NCBI GenBank assembly: GCA_014685065.1
Contig: GCA_014685065.1_3930.1
Origin: a phage
Direction: 5' to 3' (one strand)
Length of the DNA: 64,000 bases
Of this stretch, positions 47,687 to 55,342 are shown one piece after another. The translations under genes were made by a program, and so were the position numbers. The notes under the pieces are model-generated. The model was not told where the DNA came from, ran no database searches, and saw only the letters and a list, made by a program, of their open reading frames with translations. The number at the start of each line of letters is the position of its first letter. Positions within the stretch are counted from its first letter, which is position 1.

Positions 47687-49288
47687 TCAACGTCTAAGCC
47701 CCTCATATGGGTTTCCTCTCACTAAATCTGTGTGAGCACCCATTGATGGTGGCTTGAATAATTTAACTTCGTTAAGACTGTTGAAAGCATCACTGGTAGC
47801 ATCCACTTGGTCATCTTTAGTTTTACCGTCACCACAAAAGCCTTCAAGTTCTTGAAAGTAAGCTTCATTCCAACTACCTCTCAAGACTTTTACAAGTCCA
47901 GCTTCAGAAGCAGCAGAAAATCCCGCAAAGCGGGTAACTTTATCTTTATTTGTTGGTTTGGCTCTTGCTCGATAACCTTTCTCGGCAAGTTTCCTGATGA
48001 GGGATGTTGCGTAGGATTTACCAGCAGCGCCTGGGTCTTGAGGGATAAAAATACCAGTTCGCTTACCGTCACTTTCAGCAGTCAAATTAATTTGTGTTTC
48101 GACTCCAGAGGGTCTATCTCTAAATCTTACTACATCAATGATATAATAGCAACCGTCTTTTTTAGATTTACCCATCTTAACACCTGCTGTCCAGTCTGGA
48201 TTAGGGTTAATCTCAGATGGTAAAGTTGCTGCTAAGTCCCATGCTCTAACATCAAATACATCTTCTGGGAGTGAATCAACAATTTCACACCATTGTCTTT
48301 GCCAATAGTTTGAACCTTCTGCACGAGCCTTCCAGTTACCGAAACGAAGTCTTGCAACGTTTACAGGAGTGTTGTTTTCCAACTTACCACGGTACTTAGG
48401 CTCTAAGAAGTCAAGGATTGGGTTATCATCAATCGTACCAGAAATAAAGGTGTATGTTTGAGGAATCTCAAGGGGGAACATTTCAAGAATCTTGTCTCTC
48501 TCCCAATCAGAAACCATCACGCCATCGTGCATTACATACCAACGAATACGACCACATTTTTCAGGGTCTGGGTAGCCTTCTTCATCTAAGAATGGCTCTA
48601 CCCAATCGTAAATAAAGTGGTCTCTGTCTGGGTTCATGGAAATCTTCATGTATGAATCGCCTTCAGCACCAGAACGTAGACGGGTTTGTAGGTATGAAAT
48701 CTGTGAAGCAGAGAAGTGTGTACCTTCGTCAAAGTAAATAGCTGAGTATTCAATACCCTGATGACCTTCAGCGTGCTTTTCAAGTTCTAGGTAGGTAAAC
48801 TTGATAGTTGCCCCAGAAGGGAATGTGATAGTCATTTTCTGCTCGTGAGGAATCCCACCAAACTTACCAAATAGTTTCTTTGCAGCAGGCCATAAACCAC
48901 CTTGTAACTGTGTTGTATTTCGACGGAAATATACAGCATTATAGTTAGGGTCTTCAATAAATCTTAAAGAGTCCATTAACAATGCGGCAGTCTTACCAGC
49001 ACCAGCAGCACCACCATAGAGAACCAAGTCAGCATTAGTATTTAAAAAGACCTCTTGAGAACCCGGCTGAGGGGCTACATAGTTCTTATCAGTCATCAAT
49101 TTAAAGATAAGGCGAACTTGGTCTGGTGTGTATCTTAATAAAGTCAGAATTTGAGTTGGAAGGAATTTAGAGGGGTCTTTACCGAATGATTTAATAATTT
49201 CTTTTACTTCATCAGAAAGCCCCAACTCTCCAGCTAGGACTTTCCTAACATCTTCCACTCGCTTCTGCTTAACAGCATTTAAGTCCAT
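47687..49288 (-). CDS. terminase large subunit
   Basis: Start set at ATG 49286-49288 behind a GGAGG RBS (track start is TTG); Walker A GGAAGAGKTAA; about 533 aa. Confidence 0.85.
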   Translation of the reverse strand: MDLNAVKQKRVEDVRKVLAGELGLSDEVKEIIKSFGKDPSKFLPTQILTLLRYTPDQVRLIFKLMTDKNYVAPQPGSQEVFLNTNADLVLYGGAAGAGKTAALLMDSLRFIEDPNYNAVYFRRNTTQLQGGLWPAAKKLFGKFGGIPHEQKMTITFPSGATIKFTYLELEKHAEGHQGIEYSAIYFDEGTHFSASQISYLQTRLRSGAEGDSYMKISMNPDRDHFIYDWVEPFLDEEGYPDPEKCGRIRWYVMHDGVMVSDWERDKILEMFPLEIPQTYTFISGTIDDNPILDFLEPKYRGKLENNTPVNVARLRFGNWKARAEGSNYWQRQWCEIVDSLPEDVFDVRAWDLAATLPSEINPNPDWTAGVKMGKSKKDGCYYIIDVVRFRDRPSGVETQINLTAESDGKRTGIFIPQDPGAAGKSYATSLIRKLAEKGYRARAKPTNKDKVTRFAGFSAASEAGLVKVLRGSWNEAYFQELEGFCGDGKTKDDQVDATSDAFNSLNEVKLFKPPSMGAHTDLVRGNPYEGLRR

Positions 49289-49309
49289 TAAGCGCCTCCG
49301 CAAATAGAA

Positions 49310-49732: not shown

Positions 49733-49808
49733 TGGAGAATCCGAAGGGACTCGAACCCTTATAAACCTGTTTTGCAGACAGGCACATAGCCATTTCTGTC
49801 ACGGATTC
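49733..49808 (-). tRNA. tRNA-Cys (anticodon GCA)
   Basis: Hand fold: acceptor GAATCCG/CGGATTC, T-arm GGGTTCGAGTCCC, anticodon loop CTGCAAA, CCA encoded. Confidence 0.6.
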
Positions 49809-49812
49809 AAAT

Positions 49813-49905
49813 TGGAGGAAGATACCAGACTTGAACTGGTACACCGATTTCTCAGCTACTGGCAGTTTAGCAAACTGCTCCCTTACCTTTTAGGGTTAAT
49901 CTTCC
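49813..49905 (-). tRNA. tRNA-Ser (anticodon GCT), class II
   Basis: 93 nt; acceptor GGAAGAT/ATCTTCC, anticodon stem GCAGT/ACTGC with loop TTGCTAA, long variable arm. Confidence 0.55.
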
Positions 49906-49906
49906 A

Positions 49907-50641
49907 TTATTTCTGTAATGCGTTCTTCATTTCTGGTGTTGCAATAGTGTCAATTACACCAGTTTTACAGGCATCATCAAACCAGTCTGGTAAGATACCT
50001 GCTAAGAACCCATTGATATTCGTTTTAAGGTACTCTGCAATAAGGGCAGCTTCTTCTTCAATCATCTGCACAACTTCATCTGCATAAGCTGTAATCTTTG
50101 AGATACCTTCATTAATCTTACTGACAGCTTGGTTAGCTAAATCAGAAACAGTATCAAGACCCTTGTCAATAGCGTCTTGTAAGTCACTTAATACATCGTT
50201 AACACTCTCTAGTGTACTGTTAATCGTATCAATAGCTTTTTGACCATATTCTGTAGCAACACCCATAATACCACTGAACGGTGTACAACCAACTTGTTCT
50301 CCTGCTGCACCCATAACATTGGAATATCCATTTGCTACCTGCATACGTGATGAAAACTCATCAATAGATTTTTGACCGTAGTCTGTCAGGGTCTTAGTAG
50401 TTGCTGTAGTGCTTGTAAGGCTTGTTGTAAAGCTGTTTAGAAGGACTGTTGTAAGTCCAGCAGCAACAAGTTTCTCCTGCATTGTAGGGTCTGTTACAGA
50501 ACTAATAGAGCTTACAAGTGATGTAGAAGCAGCTACGGTTCCACCGAGAACTGCTGCACCAGTAATAAGTGGGTTAGAAAACCCTTTACCGGTTTTTAAG
50601 AGATTAAAAATCTCCTTACCTTGTTCTGTCATCTCTTTCAT
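49907..50641 (-). CDS. hypothetical Ser/Thr/Ala-rich protein embedded in the tRNA array
   Basis: Track ORF trimmed to an internal ATG so it does not overlap the tRNA at 50660-50734; about 244 aa. Confidence 0.4.
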   Translation of the reverse strand: MKEMTEQGKEIFNLLKTGKGFSNPLITGAAVLGGTVAASTSLVSSISSVTDPTMQEKLVAAGLTTVLLNSFTTSLTSTTATTKTLTDYGQKSIDEFSSRMQVANGYSNVMGAAGEQVGCTPFSGIMGVATEYGQKAIDTINSTLESVNDVLSDLQDAIDKGLDTVSDLANQAVSKINEGISKITAYADEVVQMIEEEAALIAEYLKTNINGFLAGILPDWFDDACKTGVIDTIATPEMKNALQK

Positions 50642-50659
50642 TAAGCACCTTTGAAATTG

Positions 50660-50734
50660 GTAGTCCAGTGGGATTTGAACCCTCTTCTCATGTTTTTCAG
50701 ACACGCGCTTTAACCATATAAGCTACTTGGACTA
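50660..50734 (-). tRNA. tRNA-Phe (anticodon GAA)
   Basis: Acceptor TAGTCCA/TGGACTA, T-loop TTCAAAT, anticodon stem CGTGT/ACATG with loop CTGAAAA. Confidence 0.5.
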
Positions 50735-50739
50735 TAAAT

Positions 50740-50815
50740 TGGGGTGACCTACGGGATTTGAACCCGTATAGACCATGTTCACAGCATGGGTCATTGCCAT
50801 TTATGATAAGGCCAC
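50740..50815 (-). tRNA. tRNA-His (anticodon GTG)
   Basis: Anticodon stem CCATG/CATGG, loop CTGTGAA; T-arm ACGGGTTCAAATCCCGT. Confidence 0.6.
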
Positions 50816-50846
50816 ATTTAAGGACTCTCGTAAGAACCCTTAGAAG

Positions 50847-50922
50847 TGGCAGCGGCATAAGGATTTGAACCTTAATAGGACAGCTTCAGAGACTGTTGCA
50901 TTGCCAGTTATGCTATACCGCT
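50847..50922 (-). tRNA. tRNA-Gln (anticodon CTG)
   Basis: D-stem GCAT/ATGC, anticodon loop CTCTGAA, T-arm TAAGGTTCAAATCCTTA. Confidence 0.55.
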
Positions 50923-50927
50923 AAATT

Positions 50928-51006
50928 TGGTACTCCATATCGGATTCGAACCGATACATAACACAGATTTTAAGTCTGGCCTCTCTGCCAATTGGAGTAA
51001 TGGAGC
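50928..51006 (-). tRNA. tRNA with Leu anticodon TAA but short variable arm (class I-like)
   Basis: Acceptor GCTCCAT/ATGGAGT, discriminator A, D-loop AATTGGCA, anticodon loop CTTAAAA, T-arm ATCGGTTCGAATCCGAT; aligns with the tRNAs at 51751 and 52329. Confidence 0.45.
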
Positions 51007-51008
51007 AT

Positions 51009-51084
51009 TGGCGGGGGATGTTGGAATTGAACCAACTTCTTCGATTTCAAAGACCGAGGTTTTAACCTTGTAAACTAATCCCCT
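51009..51084 (-). tRNA. tRNA-Gln (anticodon TTG)
   Basis: Anticodon stem TCGGT/ATCGA, loop CTTTGAA; T-arm GTTGGTTCAATTCCAAC. Confidence 0.55.
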
Positions 51085-51092
51085 TTAAATCT

Positions 51093-51650
51093 TTACTTTC
51101 TCAGTGGATGAATAAAGAATGCCAACATAACTCTTTCCCTTGAGAATGCTCTTTCTTCTGGGACAACACTTTTTAGTTTCCATCCAATATAAATTCTCCA
51201 GTAAAACTGTTTACCAAAGACTTTAATTGATGGGATAAAAGCGAATAATCCCCAAGCATTACTGTTCCACATTAGGAGATAACCTGTCTGATTATCTTCA
51301 GGGTCAGAACTTACGTTGATATTACCTTTCCACTTAGTAACATCTTTTACATCTCTTCCTAATACATGGTAAGAGAAGTTATAAGCTTTGTTTCTCCAGA
51401 GCCATCCGACTCTCTGCATGTAGACACCCAGCTTACCAATCTTTCTAATCTTAGCCCATCGTTCGATATGACCTTCGTCACCATCAATTGGATTGTCATA
51501 TGTCTCCATCCATCTAAATCCGAAAGGTAAGTGGCCTTTCTTCTCACTGTAAAATGGAACTACGAAAGGTGCTAAGATAACTGCTAAGGTTGCTGCTAAT
51601 GGTTCTAGCAAAGCTAGGAAAATCCATGAAGCATATTTTAAATATCTCAT
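51093..51650 (-). CDS. hypothetical membrane protein embedded in the tRNA array
   Basis: 185 aa; N-terminal TM segment (WIFLALLEPLAATLAVILAPFVV), Trp-rich body. Confidence 0.5.
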   Translation of the reverse strand: MRYLKYASWIFLALLEPLAATLAVILAPFVVPFYSEKKGHLPFGFRWMETYDNPIDGDEGHIERWAKIRKIGKLGVYMQRVGWLWRNKAYNFSYHVLGRDVKDVTKWKGNINVSSDPEDNQTGYLLMWNSNAWGLFAFIPSIKVFGKQFYWRIYIGWKLKSVVPEERAFSRERVMLAFFIHPLRK

Positions 51651-51669
51651 CTAAATAGCCTCTTTAAAT

Positions 51670-51745
51670 TGGCGCAGGATAAGGGATTCGAACCCCTATT
51701 AACAGCTTCGTAGACTGTTGCTCTATCCATTTGAACTAATCCTGC
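51670..51745 (-). tRNA. tRNA-Arg (anticodon ACG)
   Basis: D-arm GTTC...GAGC, anticodon stem ACAGT/GCTGT with loop CTACGAA. Confidence 0.55.
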
Positions 51746-51750
51746 AAAAT

Positions 51751-51828
51751 TGGTGTTCCAAGACGGATTCGAACCGTCACTAGTACAAGGTTTGAGCTTG
51801 CATCCTCTGCCAATTGGGATACTGGAAC
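51751..51828 (-). tRNA. tRNA with Leu anticodon CAA but short variable arm (class I-like)
   Basis: Acceptor GTTCCAG/TTGGAAC, discriminator A, D-loop AATTGGCA, anticodon stem GCAAG/CTTGT with loop CTCAAAC. Confidence 0.45.
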
Positions 51829-51829
51829 A

Positions 51830-51904
51830 TGGTACTCACTAAAGGACTTGAACCTTTTTCTTCATCTTGTAAGGGTGGTGTTTTACCATATAAACTAAGC
51901 GAGT
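51830..51904 (-). tRNA. tRNA-Val (anticodon TAC), tentative
   Basis: Good acceptor, D-arm (GTTT/AAAC) and T-arm (AAAGGTTCAAGTCCTTT); anticodon stem is weak, loop read as CTTACAA. Confidence 0.4.
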
Positions 51905-51910
51905 ATGAAA

Positions 51911-51992
51911 GAGGTCTGAAGTTGTGCCGCTAACTCAACTCCGTGGAATTTGTTACGGTCTTCAGTTGACACCAGCGGTCTTTCACTTGACC
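51911..51992. other. tRNA-sized structured element without canonical T-loop
   Basis: Terminal inverted repeat GAGGTC / GACCTC about 80 nt apart with internal hairpins (CCGT...ACGG); no GTTCRA motif on either strand. Confidence 0.35.
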
Positions 51993-51999
51993 TCTGAAT

Positions 52000-52076
52000 T
52001 GGTGCTGCTCACAGGACTCGAACCTGCATTTCCATCCTTACAAGGGATGTGTAATAGCCAATTATACGAAAGCAGC
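52000..52076 (-). tRNA. tRNA-Thr (anticodon TGT)
   Basis: Perfect anticodon stem CATCC/GGATG, loop CTTGTAA. Confidence 0.6.
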
Positions 52077-52082
52077 ATTGTT

Positions 52083-52157
52083 TGGAGCATCCAGAGGGAA
52101 TCGAACCCTCAACCTCAGTTTGGAAGACTGTAATTTTCCCGTTTAAACTATGGATGC
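52083..52157 (-). tRNA. tRNA-Gly (anticodon TCC)
   Basis: Acceptor GCATCCA/TGGATGC, anticodon loop CTTCCAA, T-arm GAGGGTTCGATTCCCTC. Confidence 0.55.
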
Positions 52158-52163
52158 ACTAAT

Positions 52164-52240
52164 TGGTGGAGAAGCAGGGAATTGAACCCTGTACTTAAGT
52201 TTGCAAAACTTATGTTTTAACCATGTAAACTACATCCCCA
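52164..52240 (-). tRNA. tRNA-Ala (anticodon TGC)
   Basis: D-stem GTTT/AAAC, anticodon stem TAAGT/ACTTA with loop TTTGCAA. Confidence 0.6.
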
Positions 52241-52245
52241 ATGTT

Positions 52246-52321
52246 TGGTACAGGTGGAGGGAATTGAACCCATCGTCTTACTGATTAAGAGTCAGCCGCA
52301 TAACCATTTTGCTACACCTGC
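52246..52321 (-). tRNA. tRNA-Lys (anticodon CTT)
   Basis: Anticodon loop CTCTTAA; paralogous in sequence to the Lys(TTT) tRNA at 53966. Confidence 0.5.
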
Positions 52322-52328
52322 ATTAATT

Positions 52329-52405
52329 TGGTACACCTAGAGAGATTCGAACTCACACTGAGCAGATTCTAAGTCTGCTGCCTCTACCAATTGGGCTATA
52401 GGTGC
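52329..52405 (-). tRNA. tRNA with Leu anticodon TAG but short variable arm (class I-like)
   Basis: Acceptor GCACCTA/TAGGTGT, discriminator A, D-loop AATTGGTA, perfect anticodon stem GCAGA/TCTGC with loop CTTAGAA, variable region only about 5 nt. Confidence 0.5.
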
Positions 52406-52663
52406 ATTAAATCTTTTTAGAGAACTTCTAAGAACCTAAGCAACAAGGTTCCACAACAAGCTGTAATAACCTTAGAAGCCCTCTAAAAAGACCTAATTTG
52501 GTCTTTGCATAGTCTTGTTTAATCCGGTGACTAGAACCTTTGGAGAGCTTGATATTATCTCTTCTCCGTGACACCTACTAGGTGCTTTACTGTGCGTGTA
52601 CGACAATACACGAGGGATACCAAAGCAACATCCGAATGAAGCTTGGCTTTAAATCTTATTAGG
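52406..52663 (-). ncRNA. structured non-coding spacer within the tRNA array (candidate small stable RNA)
   Basis: No ORF and no tRNA; several hairpins (CTTCTAAG...CTTAGAAG 8 bp; AGACC-taattt-GGTCT; CGTGTA-cgacaa-TACACG). Confidence 0.3.
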
Positions 52664-52751
52664 CGGTAAGTAAAGGAGTCGAACCCTCACCGTATCTCTA
52701 CAGTGGCAACTGTTTTCAAGACAGTTTGGCTACCATTAGCCGCTACCTACC
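52664..52751 (-). tRNA. tRNA-Ser (anticodon TGA), class II
   Basis: 88 nt; perfect anticodon stem ACTGT/ACAGT with loop CTTGAAA; long variable arm; CCA not encoded. Confidence 0.55.
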
Positions 52752-52764
52752 CCTAATAAGACTT

Positions 52765-52847
52765 TGGCATGGGACGGAGGAGTTGAACCACTTTGAAACG
52801 GTTTTGGAGGCCGTTGCTCATGCCTTAGAGTCTTAACATCGTCCCAC
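52765..52847 (-). tRNA. tRNA-Trp (anticodon CCA), atypical
   Basis: 83 nt; acceptor GTGGGAC/GTCCCAT, anticodon region ACGGC-CTCCAAA-ACCGT; T-stem imperfect. Confidence 0.4.
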
Positions 52848-52989
52848 ACTATAATTCGAAGCTTACCGTATTTTCACAACACTGTAAAGCCCCTTCTCAG
52901 ATTATTTACATGTTCTGGAAAACATGAGATACAGACCACCTCCTTACACGGAGACCCGATAAGGTCGTCTAAGCAATCTGCTAACTATT

Positions 52990-53066
52990 TGGCACACCCT
53001 ACAGGATTCGAACCTGTAACTAACGATTTAGAAGACCGTTGCTCTATCCAATTGAACTAAGGGTGC
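52990..53066 (-). tRNA. tRNA-Arg (anticodon TCT)
   Basis: Anticodon stem ACGGT/ATCGT, loop CTTCTAA; T-arm ACAGGTTCGAATCCTGT. Confidence 0.55.
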
Positions 53067-53313
53067 ATTAATCTTTAAAGACTCTCTTAGAAAGCCCTTA
53101 AAGATGCCCACCTTATTAATCATACCGTGGGCGAGTACGCCAAATTCTTTGATGAGGGATTGGAAGACCTCACTGGTGTTTAGCCTATCAAGCTACTGCC
53201 AGAAAAACATTGTCGTTTGCATTTATTTTAAATTTGCAAAATAGACGCTACGCAACGAAAACTAAGGTTACTATAAAGTGGTCACATCTCAATGTCAACA
53301 ACTTTATTGAAAT

Positions 53314-53389
53314 TGGTACTGTGAGAAGGATTCGAACCTTCTGCCTTTCGGTTATCAGCCGAATGCACATCCATATGTGCTTTCACAGC
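53314..53389 (-). tRNA. tRNA-Ile (anticodon GAT)
   Basis: Perfect anticodon stem TTCGG/CCGAA, loop CTGATAA. Confidence 0.6.
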
Positions 53390-53868
53390 ATTGTTACCCC
53401 TTCGTGTACCTCTCTGTGGCAATTTGCACACAGTAATACACACTTATCAACTTCAGACTTCATTACCTCTATAGAGAAGTGTTTTTGTCCTACTGTGAAG
53501 TCCTTTGTATTAGGGTCTAAGTGGTGAAACTCTAAAGCCTTTATGCACTTATTGTATCCACAAATTGAGCAACAACCACCTTTGTAATCAACTAAAACCC
53601 TCTTAAGTTTGTCACGAGACTTTTTAACGTGTTGTGACTTCGCTTTCTTTTCTTCATCGGGGTTTTTGTATTGTTTCAGAATACCATTTGAAATACATTC
53701 ATCACAATACTTTCTTGATTTTGGTGTTTGTTTTCCACATGAATGACAAGAGCCTTCTTGTCTTCTTTTTGGATGACTCTTGTTGTTTACCCTTGCAGCA
53801 CAAGAGCGTGAACAATATTTTCCGCCTTTAACGGCTTTGTTGTCACAATCTTTATTAGCACAAAACAT
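53383..53868 (-). CDS. HNH homing endonuclease
   Basis: Trimmed to ATG 53866-53868 (RBS GGTGA) so it does not overlap tRNAs; Cys-rich N-terminal region; C-terminal HNH motif EFHHLDPNTKD...CANCHREVH. Confidence 0.7.
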   Translation of the reverse strand: MFCANKDCDNKAVKGGKYCSRSCAARVNNKSHPKRRQEGSCHSCGKQTPKSRKYCDECISNGILKQYKNPDEEKKAKSQHVKKSRDKLKRVLVDYKGGCCSICGYNKCIKALEFHHLDPNTKDFTVGQKHFSIEVMKSEVDKCVLLCANCHREVHEGVTML

Positions 53869-53884
53869 AATATCACCAACGAAT

Positions 53885-53961
53885 TGGAGGTTCAGATGGG
53901 AATCGAACCCACATTCATAGGGCTTATGAGACCCCTGCATTACCTTATCTGCGACTGAACC
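53885..53961 (-). tRNA. tRNA-Met (anticodon CAT)
   Basis: Acceptor GGTTCAG/CTGAACC perfect; anticodon stem GGGGT/GCCCT, loop CTCATAA. Confidence 0.55.
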
Positions 53962-53965
53962 ATAT

Positions 53966-54041
53966 TGGTAGAAGTGGAGGGATTCGAACCCATCGCCTGT
54001 CAGATTAAAAGTCTGCCGCATCACCATTCTGCTACACTTCC
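53966..54041 (-). tRNA. tRNA-Lys (anticodon TTT)
   Basis: Anticodon loop CTTTTAA; T-arm ATGGGTTCGAATCCCTC. Confidence 0.5.
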
Positions 54042-54045
54042 ATTA

Positions 54046-54181
54046 AAATTATCTTTGTAGATAAGCTATCCAGACTTGCTTAAGGTCTGTAGCGATGTGC
54101 CTTGTTGGGTTTAAATCTAGAATTTACCCTTTCACTCTTTGTGGTCGCATACTCACAGGTAAGCTTAATAACTTATCTACA
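54046..54181. repeat. 19-bp perfect inverted repeat flanking a ~98-nt spacer
   Basis: aattatctttgtagataag (54046-54064) is the exact reverse complement of cttatctacaaagataatt (54163-54181); inner CAGAC...GTCTG hairpin. Confidence 0.55.
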
Positions 54182-54241
54182 AAGATAATTACCAGACCGT
54201 TGTTTATCATCTTAAGTGCTACCATTACACCAACTCGACAT

Positions 54242-54266
54242 CTGCCGAGTGAAGGAATCGAACCTT
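54242..54266 (-). other. tRNA 3'-half-like fragment (T-arm plus acceptor 3' strand only)
   Basis: Canonical GAAGGTTCGATTCCTTC T-arm followed by ACTCGGC-A, but no complementary 5' acceptor strand found within 120 nt. Confidence 0.3.
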
Positions 54267-54497
54267 CGCCTTTTCTTTACCGGAGAAATAGATTGTTTAA
54301 GTTTTGCTGTAAACGGTCTTCTGTAAATTTGTTGAGCCAGACCAAGTTTTAAATTTTCAAAATTAAATTGGCTTGAAATTTCATACATTCTTGCTGTATT
54401 TGGTCTTCTGCTCCTTTAAAGAATACTCGTAAGAACCCTTTAAGGGAGGGGCTAAATAGCCCTCTCAAAACATCATCTTGAAATACTTATTATAATT

Positions 54498-54574
54498 TGG
54501 CGGTTACGAAGGGATTTGAACCCTCATCATCTCCCGTGACAGGGGAGTATTTTAACCAGTTAAACTACATAACC
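54498..54574 (-). tRNA. tRNA-Asp (anticodon GTC)
   Basis: Perfect anticodon stem CTCCC/GGGAG, loop CTGTCAC; D-stem GTTT/AAAT. Confidence 0.6.
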
Positions 54575-54580
54575 TTTATT

Positions 54581-54668
54581 TGGTGTGCCGTGTAGGAGTC
54601 GAACCTACCGAGTCTCAATGACAAGGGATTTACAGTCCCCACCGCTACCATCTACGGGATAACGACAC
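54581..54668 (-). tRNA. tRNA-Tyr (anticodon GTA), class II
   Basis: 88 nt; anticodon stem GGGGA/TCCCT, loop CTGTAAA; long variable arm. Confidence 0.5.
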
Positions 54669-54737
54669 ATTTAATTTCTATTCAGGCTAAGGACTTGCAC
54701 CTTACAAATCGGTGAGCAATCGCTTCTCTCCTAAATT

Positions 54738-54814
54738 TGGCGGTTAGTCAGGGATTCGAACCCTGTGCCATTCGCTTAACAGGCGACCGCACATACCTTA
54801 TGTGCTTCCTAACC
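54738..54814 (-). tRNA. tRNA-Asn (anticodon GTT)
   Basis: Anticodon loop CTGTTAA; T-arm CAGGGTTCGAATCCCTG. Confidence 0.5.
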
Positions 54815-54891
54815 TTAATACATTGCCAGACCGTGTTTTTTCTTTTATCCGCAAAAAGTATTTTGTTGCTGAATACGGTCTTCTGCAAAAT

Positions 54892-54968
54892 TGGAGGCGG
54901 GTGCAGGAGTCGAACCTGCCGATACCATGCTAATGAGACATGTGAGACGCCCTTTCTCTATACCCGCA
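54892..54968 (-). tRNA. tRNA with anticodon CAT (Met or Ile2), tentative
   Basis: Anticodon stem CATGT/GCATG, loop CTCATTA (position 37 is T, unusual); 1-72 mismatch in acceptor. Confidence 0.4.
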
Positions 54969-55059
54969 ATTCTTAATGACCAGACCAAATCTCTTCTTTG
55001 TCCGATTTACCTTCAGATGAATAAGATTAAGTTTGCTGTAATTGGTCTTCTGTCAAAAC

Positions 55060-55137
55060 TGGCGTTCCAGAAGGGATTTGAACCCTCAAATATCCACTTT
55101 GAAAGAGTGGTGACTTTACCATTTTGTCTACTGGAAC
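55060..55137 (-). tRNA. tRNA-Glu (anticodon TTC)
   Basis: Perfect acceptor GTTCCAG/CTGGAAC and anticodon stem CCACT/AGTGG, loop CTTTCAA. Confidence 0.6.
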
Positions 55138-55144
55138 ATTAATT

Positions 55145-55224
55145 TGGTCTCCGTTGAAGGATTTGAACCCTCGACCCCTTGCTCCCAAAGCAAGTGCTGC
55201 TAAACCAAACTGAGCTAAACGGAG
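55145..55224 (-). tRNA. tRNA-Pro (anticodon TGG)
   Basis: Perfect acceptor CTCCGTT/AACGGAG and anticodon stem CTTGC/GCAAG, loop TTTGGGA with G37. Confidence 0.6.
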
Positions 55225-55342
55225 ATAAACTTTTCAAACTCTATGTAACCACTTTAACATTATTTTTTAGTGGTTGTCAAGAACTTTTTTAAAATATTTT
55301 TCAGTATCTTAGAAAAGCTCTCATTTCGTTTCTATGTAGAAC

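Follow-up and report, generated by a model that had tools for sequence, protein, structure and literature searches.

How an HNH-type gene came to stand inside the tRNA array of a FelixO1-like phage, and whether it behaves there as a mobile element, are the questions raised by the window, the stretch of 64,000 nucleotides analyzed here. The window phage is a Felixounavirus, and ARAGORN assigns 26 tRNA genes, all on the minus strand, to its tRNA array (49733-55224). Within this array, an open reading frame (ORF; 53383-53868, minus strand) extends from an ATG at 53868-53866 to a TGA at 53385-53383 and encodes a protein of 161 residues, whose translation includes ALEFHHLDPNTKDF and, further on, CVLLCANCHREVH. 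It is preceded by tRNA-Met(CAT), located directly upstream on the same strand (53885-53961, ARAGORN and Rfam), and followed by tRNA-Ile(GAT) (53314-53389, minus strand, ARAGORN), which is the position that the earlier note on this DNA had given it. The Rfam tRNA model places tRNA-Ile at 53317-53389 (60 bits, for a gathering score of 29), and both programs agree on 53389 as its 5' end. Rfam analysis of the region 52350-54600 reports only tRNAs above the gathering score, and no RNA element within the ORF. The program-made ORF list starts the frame earlier, at an ATG at 54027 inside tRNA-Lys. The ATG at 53868 is to be preferred because the upstream part is tRNA, and because both allele groups of the gene described below keep this ATG together with its Shine-Dalgarno sequence. 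This has consequences for annotation, as gene callers run the ORF through two tRNA genes and return a model of 212-214 residues.

Profile searches bear out the reading of the product as an HNH endonuclease, which had been proposed from its motif. The protein matches PHROG 2255, 'HNH endonuclease' (E-value 1.6e-33), as well as six more HNH PHROGs. Taken alone, it scores 14.1 bits with Pfam PF01844, under the cut-off of 21.4, and neither Pfam nor PHROGs return a GIY-YIG domain match. Its homologues in a large protein database number 2,495 (E-value ≤1e-3), and many of them carry PF01844. Among 32 full-length relatives of 40-80% identity, aligned to represent the family, PF01844 is matched by 12 members (best E-value 1.2e-5) and the treble-clef domain DUF2116 by 10. 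Residues C100, C103, H115, H116, C147, C150 and H151 are invariant across these 32 sequences, and N149 and H155 are nearly so; the resulting CxxC...HH...CxxCH arrangement is the pattern of zinc-bound HNH domains. The protein can be divided into an N-terminal part (residues 3-58) with eight invariant cysteines, forming two CxxC...C...C zinc-ribbon or treble-clef modules, a long helix (residues 70-95) and a zinc-bound HNH ββα-metal domain (residues 100-156) bearing C100, C103, H115, H116, C147, C150, H151 and H155. The AlphaFold (AF2) model, built on the 32-sequence alignment, has a mean pLDDT of 91.9 and exhibits two strands (residues 112-116 and 143-147) followed by a helix (residues 148-156). 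Foldseek analysis of this model against the PDB reports HNH domains as top matches, with the Cap5 HNH domain (probability up to 0.97), and, at lower ranks (probability ~0.2-0.5), the Gme HNH nicking endonuclease, T4 endonuclease VII and the Cas9 HNH domain, interleaved with zinc-finger proteins; these matches cover the C-terminal ~77 residues, with weak E-values of 0.03-1. Sequence searches of the PDB return only hits at E-values of 0.06-0.5 for the single protein (a group II intron maturase HNH and McrA), and nothing at E-values ≤0.01 for the 32-sequence profile. The PHROG matches, the invariant residues and the predicted structure agree with each other and support the prediction that the protein is a member of the HNH endonuclease family. 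It shares the CxxC...HH...CxxCH core of the zinc HNH or His-Me finger nucleases gathered in PF01844 (McrA, Gme HNH, endonuclease VII, Cap5 and Cas9), from which it differs by the double zinc-ribbon N-terminus and the long helix, both specific to its phage family. The ORF is not a chance one, given these homologues and a dN/dS of 0.16-0.19 when compared with the allele of the FelixO1 group (83-85% nucleotide identity), which also indicates that the protein is kept by selection.

Comparison with related phages reveals a precise insertion site. The 1.7 kb around the ORF match 317 phage records, nearly all of them Ounavirinae, with Escherichia phage KEP3 as the best match (98.4%) and FelixO1-like phages next in rank. 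The ORF is found at full length in 11 phage records, always at the Met/Ile junction, while one further record holds a truncated version. The junction is empty in 35 records having the same tRNA-Ile allele (type A), and about 110 more, which carry a different tRNA-Ile allele (type B), are devoid of the gene as well. An exact-pattern scan of IMG/VR adds 16 Felixounavirus-like loci, 1 occupied and 15 empty, too few for frequencies to be drawn from them. In the relatives devoid of the gene, tRNA-Met and tRNA-Ile lie 1-2 nt apart. In BPS17L1, skuden and IME338, the empty junction is CTCCA-AT-GCTGTGA, and in REP5 and Tf it is CTCCA-AA-GCTGTGA, whereas occupied ones read CTCCA-AT-TCGTTGG...ACA-AT-GCTGTGA. 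Since the inter-tRNA spacer measures 495 nt in the window (53390-53884, minus strand) and 2 nt (AT or AA) in empty sites, the net insertion amounts to 493 nt, with AT at both ends. It consists of a leader containing the Shine-Dalgarno sequence and of the ORF without a stop codon of its own, and its boundaries are the CCA end of tRNA-Met and the first nucleotide of tRNA-Ile, both tRNAs being left intact. The gene is thus polymorphic at a single site, with junctions exact to the nucleotide between 11 occupied records and 35 empty ones of the same allele, and not fixed in all relatives; fixation at a conserved position would have spoken against mobility. As empty type A sites exceed occupied ones by 3 to 1, the element is not sweeping through these phages.

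Both edges of the insertion are tightly fitted to the neighboring tRNAs. The 16-nt leader (53869-53884, minus strand) between the 3' CCA of tRNA-Met and the ATG, where the earlier note had counted about 17 nt, has the sequence ATTCGTTGGTGATATT. It holds a GGTGAT (53877-53872) that ends 3 nt before the ATG. This hexamer, complementary to the 3' end of 16S rRNA, reads as a Shine-Dalgarno site, and the leader is conserved in the FelixO1/garuso allele as GGTGATACTTATG. At the other edge, the overlap between the ORF and tRNA-Ile that had been noticed before does exist, yet measures 7 nt (53383-53389, GCUGUGA) rather than 6. Nucleotides 1-7 of tRNA-Ile supply the G of the Met160 codon, the Leu161 codon and the TGA stop, the latter being nucleotides 5-7 of the tRNA. 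The first two letters of the Met160 codon are the AT repeat that closes the insertion.

The counterpart in FelixO1, the reference phage of the genus, is ORF44 (Felix01p085, NP_944863.2, 'HNH endonuclease'), which occupies the same Met/Ile site. Similar to the window gene, it encodes 161 residues, overlaps an identical tRNA-Ile by 7 nt and is preceded by a GGTGAT leader. However, it belongs to another allele lineage (80% amino acid identity, 85% nucleotide identity, dS 0.53), the window allele being of the KEP3/Henu11 type; the annotation of the Henu11 product is 'hypothetical protein'. Between the two allele groups, dS of the HNH gene amounts to 0.53-0.67, as compared with 0.19-0.22 for the neighboring vWA-like gene in the same genome pairs, and by these values the groups are old. 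The backbones of FelixO1 and garuso are 95-96% identical to that of the window, while their HNH genes are only 83-85% identical to the window gene. The reverse holds for Shigella phage Henu11, from the sister genus Mooglevirus: its backbone is 74-90% identical to the window (80% for the vWA gene and ~83% for the adjacent spacers), whereas it carries a window-type ORF at 97.5% nucleotide identity. The similarity extends over a tract of ~850 bp (53113-53963), ~97% identical to Henu11, that spans tRNA-Met, the HNH gene and tRNA-Ile and continues for another ~200 nt; the tract was defined by pairwise comparisons, as binned mismatches from the multiple alignment are noisy owing to indels in the array. 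It is likely a transferred or co-converted segment, judging from this identity profile. Being more diverged than the backbone within the genus and far less so between genera, the HNH gene has a history of its own, discordant with that of the genome in both Henu11 and FelixO1, and its flanks were probably transferred with it. A short island with common flanks is the trace that homing with co-conversion leaves, although recombination of the ordinary kind during co-infection, with no part played by the nuclease, could also have produced the Henu11 tract. At 97.5% identity, the exchange with Henu11 is much younger than the split between Felixounavirus and Mooglevirus. The proposal of a recent mobile insertion, put forward in the earlier note, therefore holds for mobility, which both the site polymorphism and the Henu11 discordance favor, and half holds for recency: the allele groups are old, and the exchange with Henu11 is younger than the genus split.

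The tRNA-Ile gene that closes the insertion is itself variable. At least three highly divergent tRNA-Ile(GAT) alleles occupy this slot: type A, that of the window, in 46-47 records, type B in the ~110 records mentioned above, and type C in VpaE1-like phages. Type A is identical in the window, FelixO1, garuso, KEP3 and Henu11, while its identity is ~64% with type B (ekra) and 67% with type C (VpaE1). The HNH gene is found with type A only, a restriction that could reflect ancestry rather than target specificity. As the tRNA-Ile of ekra, devoid of the gene, is only ~64% identical, the idea arose that the gene travels as a cassette with its own cleavage-resistant tRNA-Ile. Such a cassette is not required, since 35 type A records are empty, and the idea is further weakened by other tRNA slots being dimorphic without an HNH gene. 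Divergent alleles are indeed found at single Felixounavirus tRNA slots for Leu(TAG) (identity 0.58), Ile (0.64), Ala (0.76), Pro (0.78) and Thr (0.79), as against identities of at least 0.97 for the neighboring tRNAs.

Association with tRNA genes is a habit of the whole family. FelixO1 ORF45, FelixO1 ORF47 and BPS17L1 gp106 are paralogues of the window protein (36-46% identity, E-values 1e-19 to 1e-21), and they occupy other inter-tRNA slots. FelixO1 ORF47 starts 14 nt after tRNA-Gly, with a leader similar to that of the window gene and reading AAGGTGTGAT-ATG, and its stop lies 1 nt short of tRNA-Thr; a spacer of 6 nt separates the same tRNA-Gly and tRNA-Thr in the window. Of the 80 IMG/VR relatives ranked best, a tRNA is present within 4 kb in 78 and within 100 nt in 67. 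In 37 of 74 HNH ORFs, the stop codon falls within the 5' end of a tRNA on the same strand, as against 8 of the 480 other ORFs of at least 100 residues in the same loci. Clustering at 70% identity leaves 38 lineages, of which 13 end within a tRNA of the same strand or at most 10 nt before one. The commonest overlap is 10 nt, with U8-A9-G10 of the tRNA read as a UAG stop. Three of the four Logan homologues examined are embedded in tRNA arrays, and GenBank matches in other phages often lie under or beside tRNA annotations. Homologues (E-values 1e-16 to 1e-18) also sit beside tRNA-Ala in the 112-121-kb records NBSal005 and AmPh_EK80, presumed from their size to be T5-like. Regarding the identity of the flanking tRNAs, tRNA-Asn(GUU) makes up 55 of 111, as compared with 23 of 602 for the rest (Fisher odds ratio 25, p ~1e-32, a calculation that ignores relatedness). 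The family may, although this is less likely than not, be a dedicated lineage of homing endonucleases targeting tRNA genes, characterized by insertion at their 5' boundaries, a borrowed stop codon, an output tied to RNase P, a preference for tRNA-Asn and a role in driving the replacement of tRNA alleles. Our literature search found no description of such a family-wide 5'-boundary and borrowed-stop habit for an HNH family, the only published parallel it brought up being that of the unrelated SegB family, and this habit, together with the tRNA-Asn bias, may be new.

Knowledge of homing endonucleases in tRNA clusters dates back to the studies of phages T4 and T5. [quoted passage not shown] 2004, as cited in PMC2330249 and PMC10644984). 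T5 resembles the window in having HNH-superfamily genes among its tRNA genes. Furthermore, the T5 genes hegC and hegD run 14 and 23 nt, respectively, into the tRNA annotated next to them downstream (14-24 nt when T5.069 is included), and the heg genes are variable between T5-like phages. The location in the tRNA region and the overlap with tRNAs are thus common to both systems, but homology to the heg products is not: a tblastn search of T5 positions 24-52 kb returned no close homologue of the window protein, the best hit being the HNH motif of hegA (E-value 0.18). The hegC and hegD products exhibit the motif EVDHKDRN, different from that of the window protein, and we take them to be I-HmuI/HNH_3-like.

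A functional parallel is provided by T4 SegB, a GIY-YIG free-standing homing endonuclease encoded in the T4 tRNA gene cluster (PMC2330249, PMC13096335). Like the window gene, segB stands free in a tRNA cluster, and its ORF ends right at the 5' end of the tRNA that follows; SegB spreads with flanking tRNA genes, and the family is statistically tRNA-associated. In contrast, SegB has a GIY-YIG domain, unrelated in fold to a zinc-bound HNH domain, and its activity, cleavage sites and homing have been shown. The window gene probably parallels SegB in function and, having no GIY-YIG domain, does not belong to the SegB family. It has been proposed that maturation of tRNA-Arg severs the T4 segB mRNA behind its last sense codon and ahead of the stop, and a similar brake by tRNA processing has been suggested for the T5 enzymes (PMC2330249). 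HNH genes have also been noted in mycobacteriophage tRNA clusters (PMC6409571). Within the genus itself, the FelixO1 genome paper lists six genes resembling those of HNH homing endonucleases, ORF44 being one of them, with no analysis of their sites (Whichard et al. 2010, PMC3185647), and a comparative study of Felixounavirus reports homing endonucleases as variable, again without site analysis (PMC8300805). The window gene is, in this sense, a known kind of element, whose FelixO1 counterpart is already annotated.

Its expression probably depends on the tRNA array. Pattern matching identifies a promoter-like site (TTGACA-18-TAAAGT with TG; 55251-55280, minus strand) just upstream of tRNA-Pro (55145-55224, minus strand), the first tRNA of the array block, and a second one, also upstream of tRNA-Pro, at 55371-55343. 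The same pattern scan finds no terminator-like site on the minus strand between these and the ORF, and the two sites are the likely source of its transcript, as read from their position and sequence. A further promoter-like site (TTGACA-17-TATAGT, 11 of 12 matches; 53270-53298, minus strand) lies directly downstream of tRNA-Ile, in a spacer conserved in relatives. Because the total counts of the promoter and terminator scan are no higher than those of shuffled sequences, we infer, rather than assert, that the ORF is co-transcribed with the array, as the earlier note had proposed, and rides on the tRNA precursor.

By analogy with characterized free-standing homing endonucleases, a model of cleavage and homing can be proposed. 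The ORF would be transcribed within the tRNA precursor and translated from its GGTGAT-N3-ATG start. In a mixed infection, the enzyme would nick or cut the DNA of a relative at or near the empty Met/Ile junction, and recombinational repair off the genome carrying the gene would copy it together with flanking sequence of a few hundred bp. The insertion would split or alter the target, making the carrier immune. Cleavage by RNase P at position +1 of tRNA-Ile would strip one and a half sense codons, along with the stop codon, off the end of the message, leaving a transcript that ends ...ACA-AU, a non-stop mRNA, and the level of the nuclease would thereby be kept low, by just the kind of brake put forward for T4 segB.

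Three other accounts of the gene have to be weighed against this model. It might be ancestral, not actively mobile, and repeatedly lost in most lineages. All carriers do share the site and the tRNA-Ile allele, the allele groups are old, and the AT repeat bordering the element offers a possible substrate for deletion. Yet this repeat counts just 2 nt, and it would have had to drive 35 nucleotide-exact losses. Moreover, members of the family are dispersed among many different inter-tRNA sites in phages unrelated to one another, and the relationships of Henu11 and FelixO1 contradict an HNH tree congruent with the core genome. The HNH gene diverges 2.5-3.5 times as much as the neighboring gene within the genus and is nevertheless 97.5% identical across genera; taken together, this divergence and this island exclude vertical descent with loss as the source of the pattern, and we regard the account as a whole as quite improbable.

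Slightly better placed, although still unlikely, is a co-opted helper, in which the nuclease promotes recombination or amplification of the tRNA block against tRNA-cleaving defenses of the host, possibly beside homing. SegB of T4/T6 gives a precedent, as it was recently shown to amplify tRNA-Tyr, whereby the phage escapes Septu, and to be widely linked to tRNAs (PMC13096335). The purifying selection on the HNH protein and the discrete divergent alleles at single Felixounavirus tRNA slots are compatible with such a role. However, with ~10 carriers among ~250 Felixounavirus records the gene is dispensable, dimorphic tRNA alleles are also found at slots with no HNH gene close by in the genomes examined, and the window displays single tRNA copies with no amplification. 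Finally, a packaging-associated HNH protein, acting as a terminase cofactor as in HK97-like cos phages, would have in its favor a terminase-like ORF (large terminase, 47687-49303) located ~4 kb away on the same strand. Seventeen tRNA genes separate the two, the relatives of the HNH gene are tied to tRNA genes rather than to terminases, and the great majority of near-identical, viable phages lack the gene; its absence from most relatives led us to drop this reading, whose probability we consider negligible. Altogether, the window gene is probably a free-standing homing endonuclease gene, from a family combining zinc ribbons with an HNH domain and specialized in phage tRNA arrays.

For the window alone, the significance of this assignment is small, as it concerns a recognized selfish element whose same-site counterpart is annotated in FelixO1, the reference of the genus. 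The family as a whole offers more. Its naturally empty and occupied alleles, with at least three tRNA-Ile alleles at a single slot, provide a test of how HNH endonucleases choose tRNA genes as targets, and its borrowed stop codons a test of whether tRNA processing throttles the expression of a nuclease. It likewise offers a test of the role of HNH endonucleases in the turnover of phage tRNA genes, which are now known to counter tRNA-cleaving defenses of the host.

The tRNA array of FelixO1 (locus L003) contains two further HNH genes that are paralogous to the one found between tRNA-Met and tRNA-Ile in the window. ORF47 (L003 255-668) is flanked by tRNA-Gly and tRNA-Thr, and ORF45 (L003 1586-1978) by tRNA-Ser and tRNA-Ile. 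The window has no HNH gene at either site (52076-52083 and 52751-53314, respectively): at the ORF47 site, tRNA-Thr and tRNA-Gly are spaced by 6 nt, and the ORF45 site houses an intact tRNA-Arg(TCT) (52990-53066), which ARAGORN did not find between tRNA-Ser and tRNA-Ile of FelixO1. Among the 80 best IMG/VR loci encoding relatives of the window HNH protein (L033-L112), half of the flanking tRNAs are reported as tRNA-Asn(GUU), and in several loci the HNH gene has a tRNA-Asn on either side. Many of these calls span 87-90 nt and combine a long variable arm with a D arm and anticodon stem that are Tyr/Ser-like (GCAGACUGUUAAUCUGC), as exemplified by L047 3734-3820, L079 3374-3461, L037 3814-3902, and L112 3459-3547. 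ARAGORN may have miscalled them, or they may be unusual class-II-like tRNAs that carry an Asn anticodon. Gene callers also stretch the HNH ORF across tRNA-Met and tRNA-Lys, or assign a separate "hypothetical protein" there (window 53869-54027). Such calls, exemplified by a 214-aa ORF of the window, a 212-aa database representative (protein cluster P0001), and garuso_98 of phage garuso (L002 2463-2636), are annotation artefacts. Two other protein-coding ORFs lie within the array on the tRNA strand (minus), one of 265 residues (49907-50704) and a hydrophobic-looking one of 185 residues (51093-51650), the latter being poorly conserved in the Mooglevirus Henu11.

The spacer between tRNA-Met and tRNA-Lys(TTT) measures 4 nt in the window (53962-53965) and comprises ~76-83 extra nucleotides in Henu11 (L114 3081-3163) and KEP3 (L115); these could be either a remnant or a further small element. 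A 457-nt stretch of the array (54042-54497) is devoid of any called tRNA and holds a hairpin (GTGAAGGAATCGAACCTTCGC, plus-strand sequence, 54249-54269) whose complement resembles a tRNA T-arm. At the equivalent place, the record of REP5, a type A relative with an empty HNH site, carries an odd 131-nt "tRNA-Thr" annotation; this stretch is possibly a decayed tRNA. Pattern scanning, in which promoter-like totals are no higher than in shuffled sequences, reports the region's best sigma-70-like match (TTGACA-17-TATAGT, 11/12) on the minus strand at 53270-53298. This top match sits directly after tRNA-Ile, in a spacer kept across all relatives, and suggests that the array is read as several transcription units, one of them ending with the HNH gene.

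The tRNA-Ile(GAT) slot next to the HNH gene is occupied by one of at least three divergent alleles. In type A, that of the window, position 8, which is U in almost all tRNAs, is an A (GCUGUGA-AA-GCAC; window 53382-53389 for nucleotides 1-8), and G1 and U72 form a wobble pair. The type B allele possesses the usual U8-A9-G10; an HNH insertion beside it would read ...AUG CUG GUA UAG, its stop likewise falling within the tRNA. A tRNA-Met/tRNA-Ile junction that matches the empty type A site of Felixounavirus at 98.7-100% identity is also present in MG065664.1 (792-946), a 70.7-kb record named "Campylobacter phage A132". Such a junction is unexpected in a Campylobacter phage, and the record is possibly mislabelled or contaminated.

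Comparison of the window array (49733-55224) with loci L001-L008, L012, L016, L020, and L024 reveals discrete, very divergent alleles at single slots amid near-identical neighbouring tRNAs and spacers. Identity is 0.58-0.62 for Leu(TAG), 0.64-0.67 for Ile(GAT), 0.68-0.88 for Asp, 0.76 for Ala(TGC), 0.78 for Pro(TGG), and 0.79 for Thr(TGT), and at least 0.97 for Lys, Tyr, Gly, Ser, Met, Phe, and Gln. The pattern looks like slot-by-slot replacement of tRNA genes, which could be driven by nuclease-mediated exchange or could reflect escape from host tRNA-cleaving defences.
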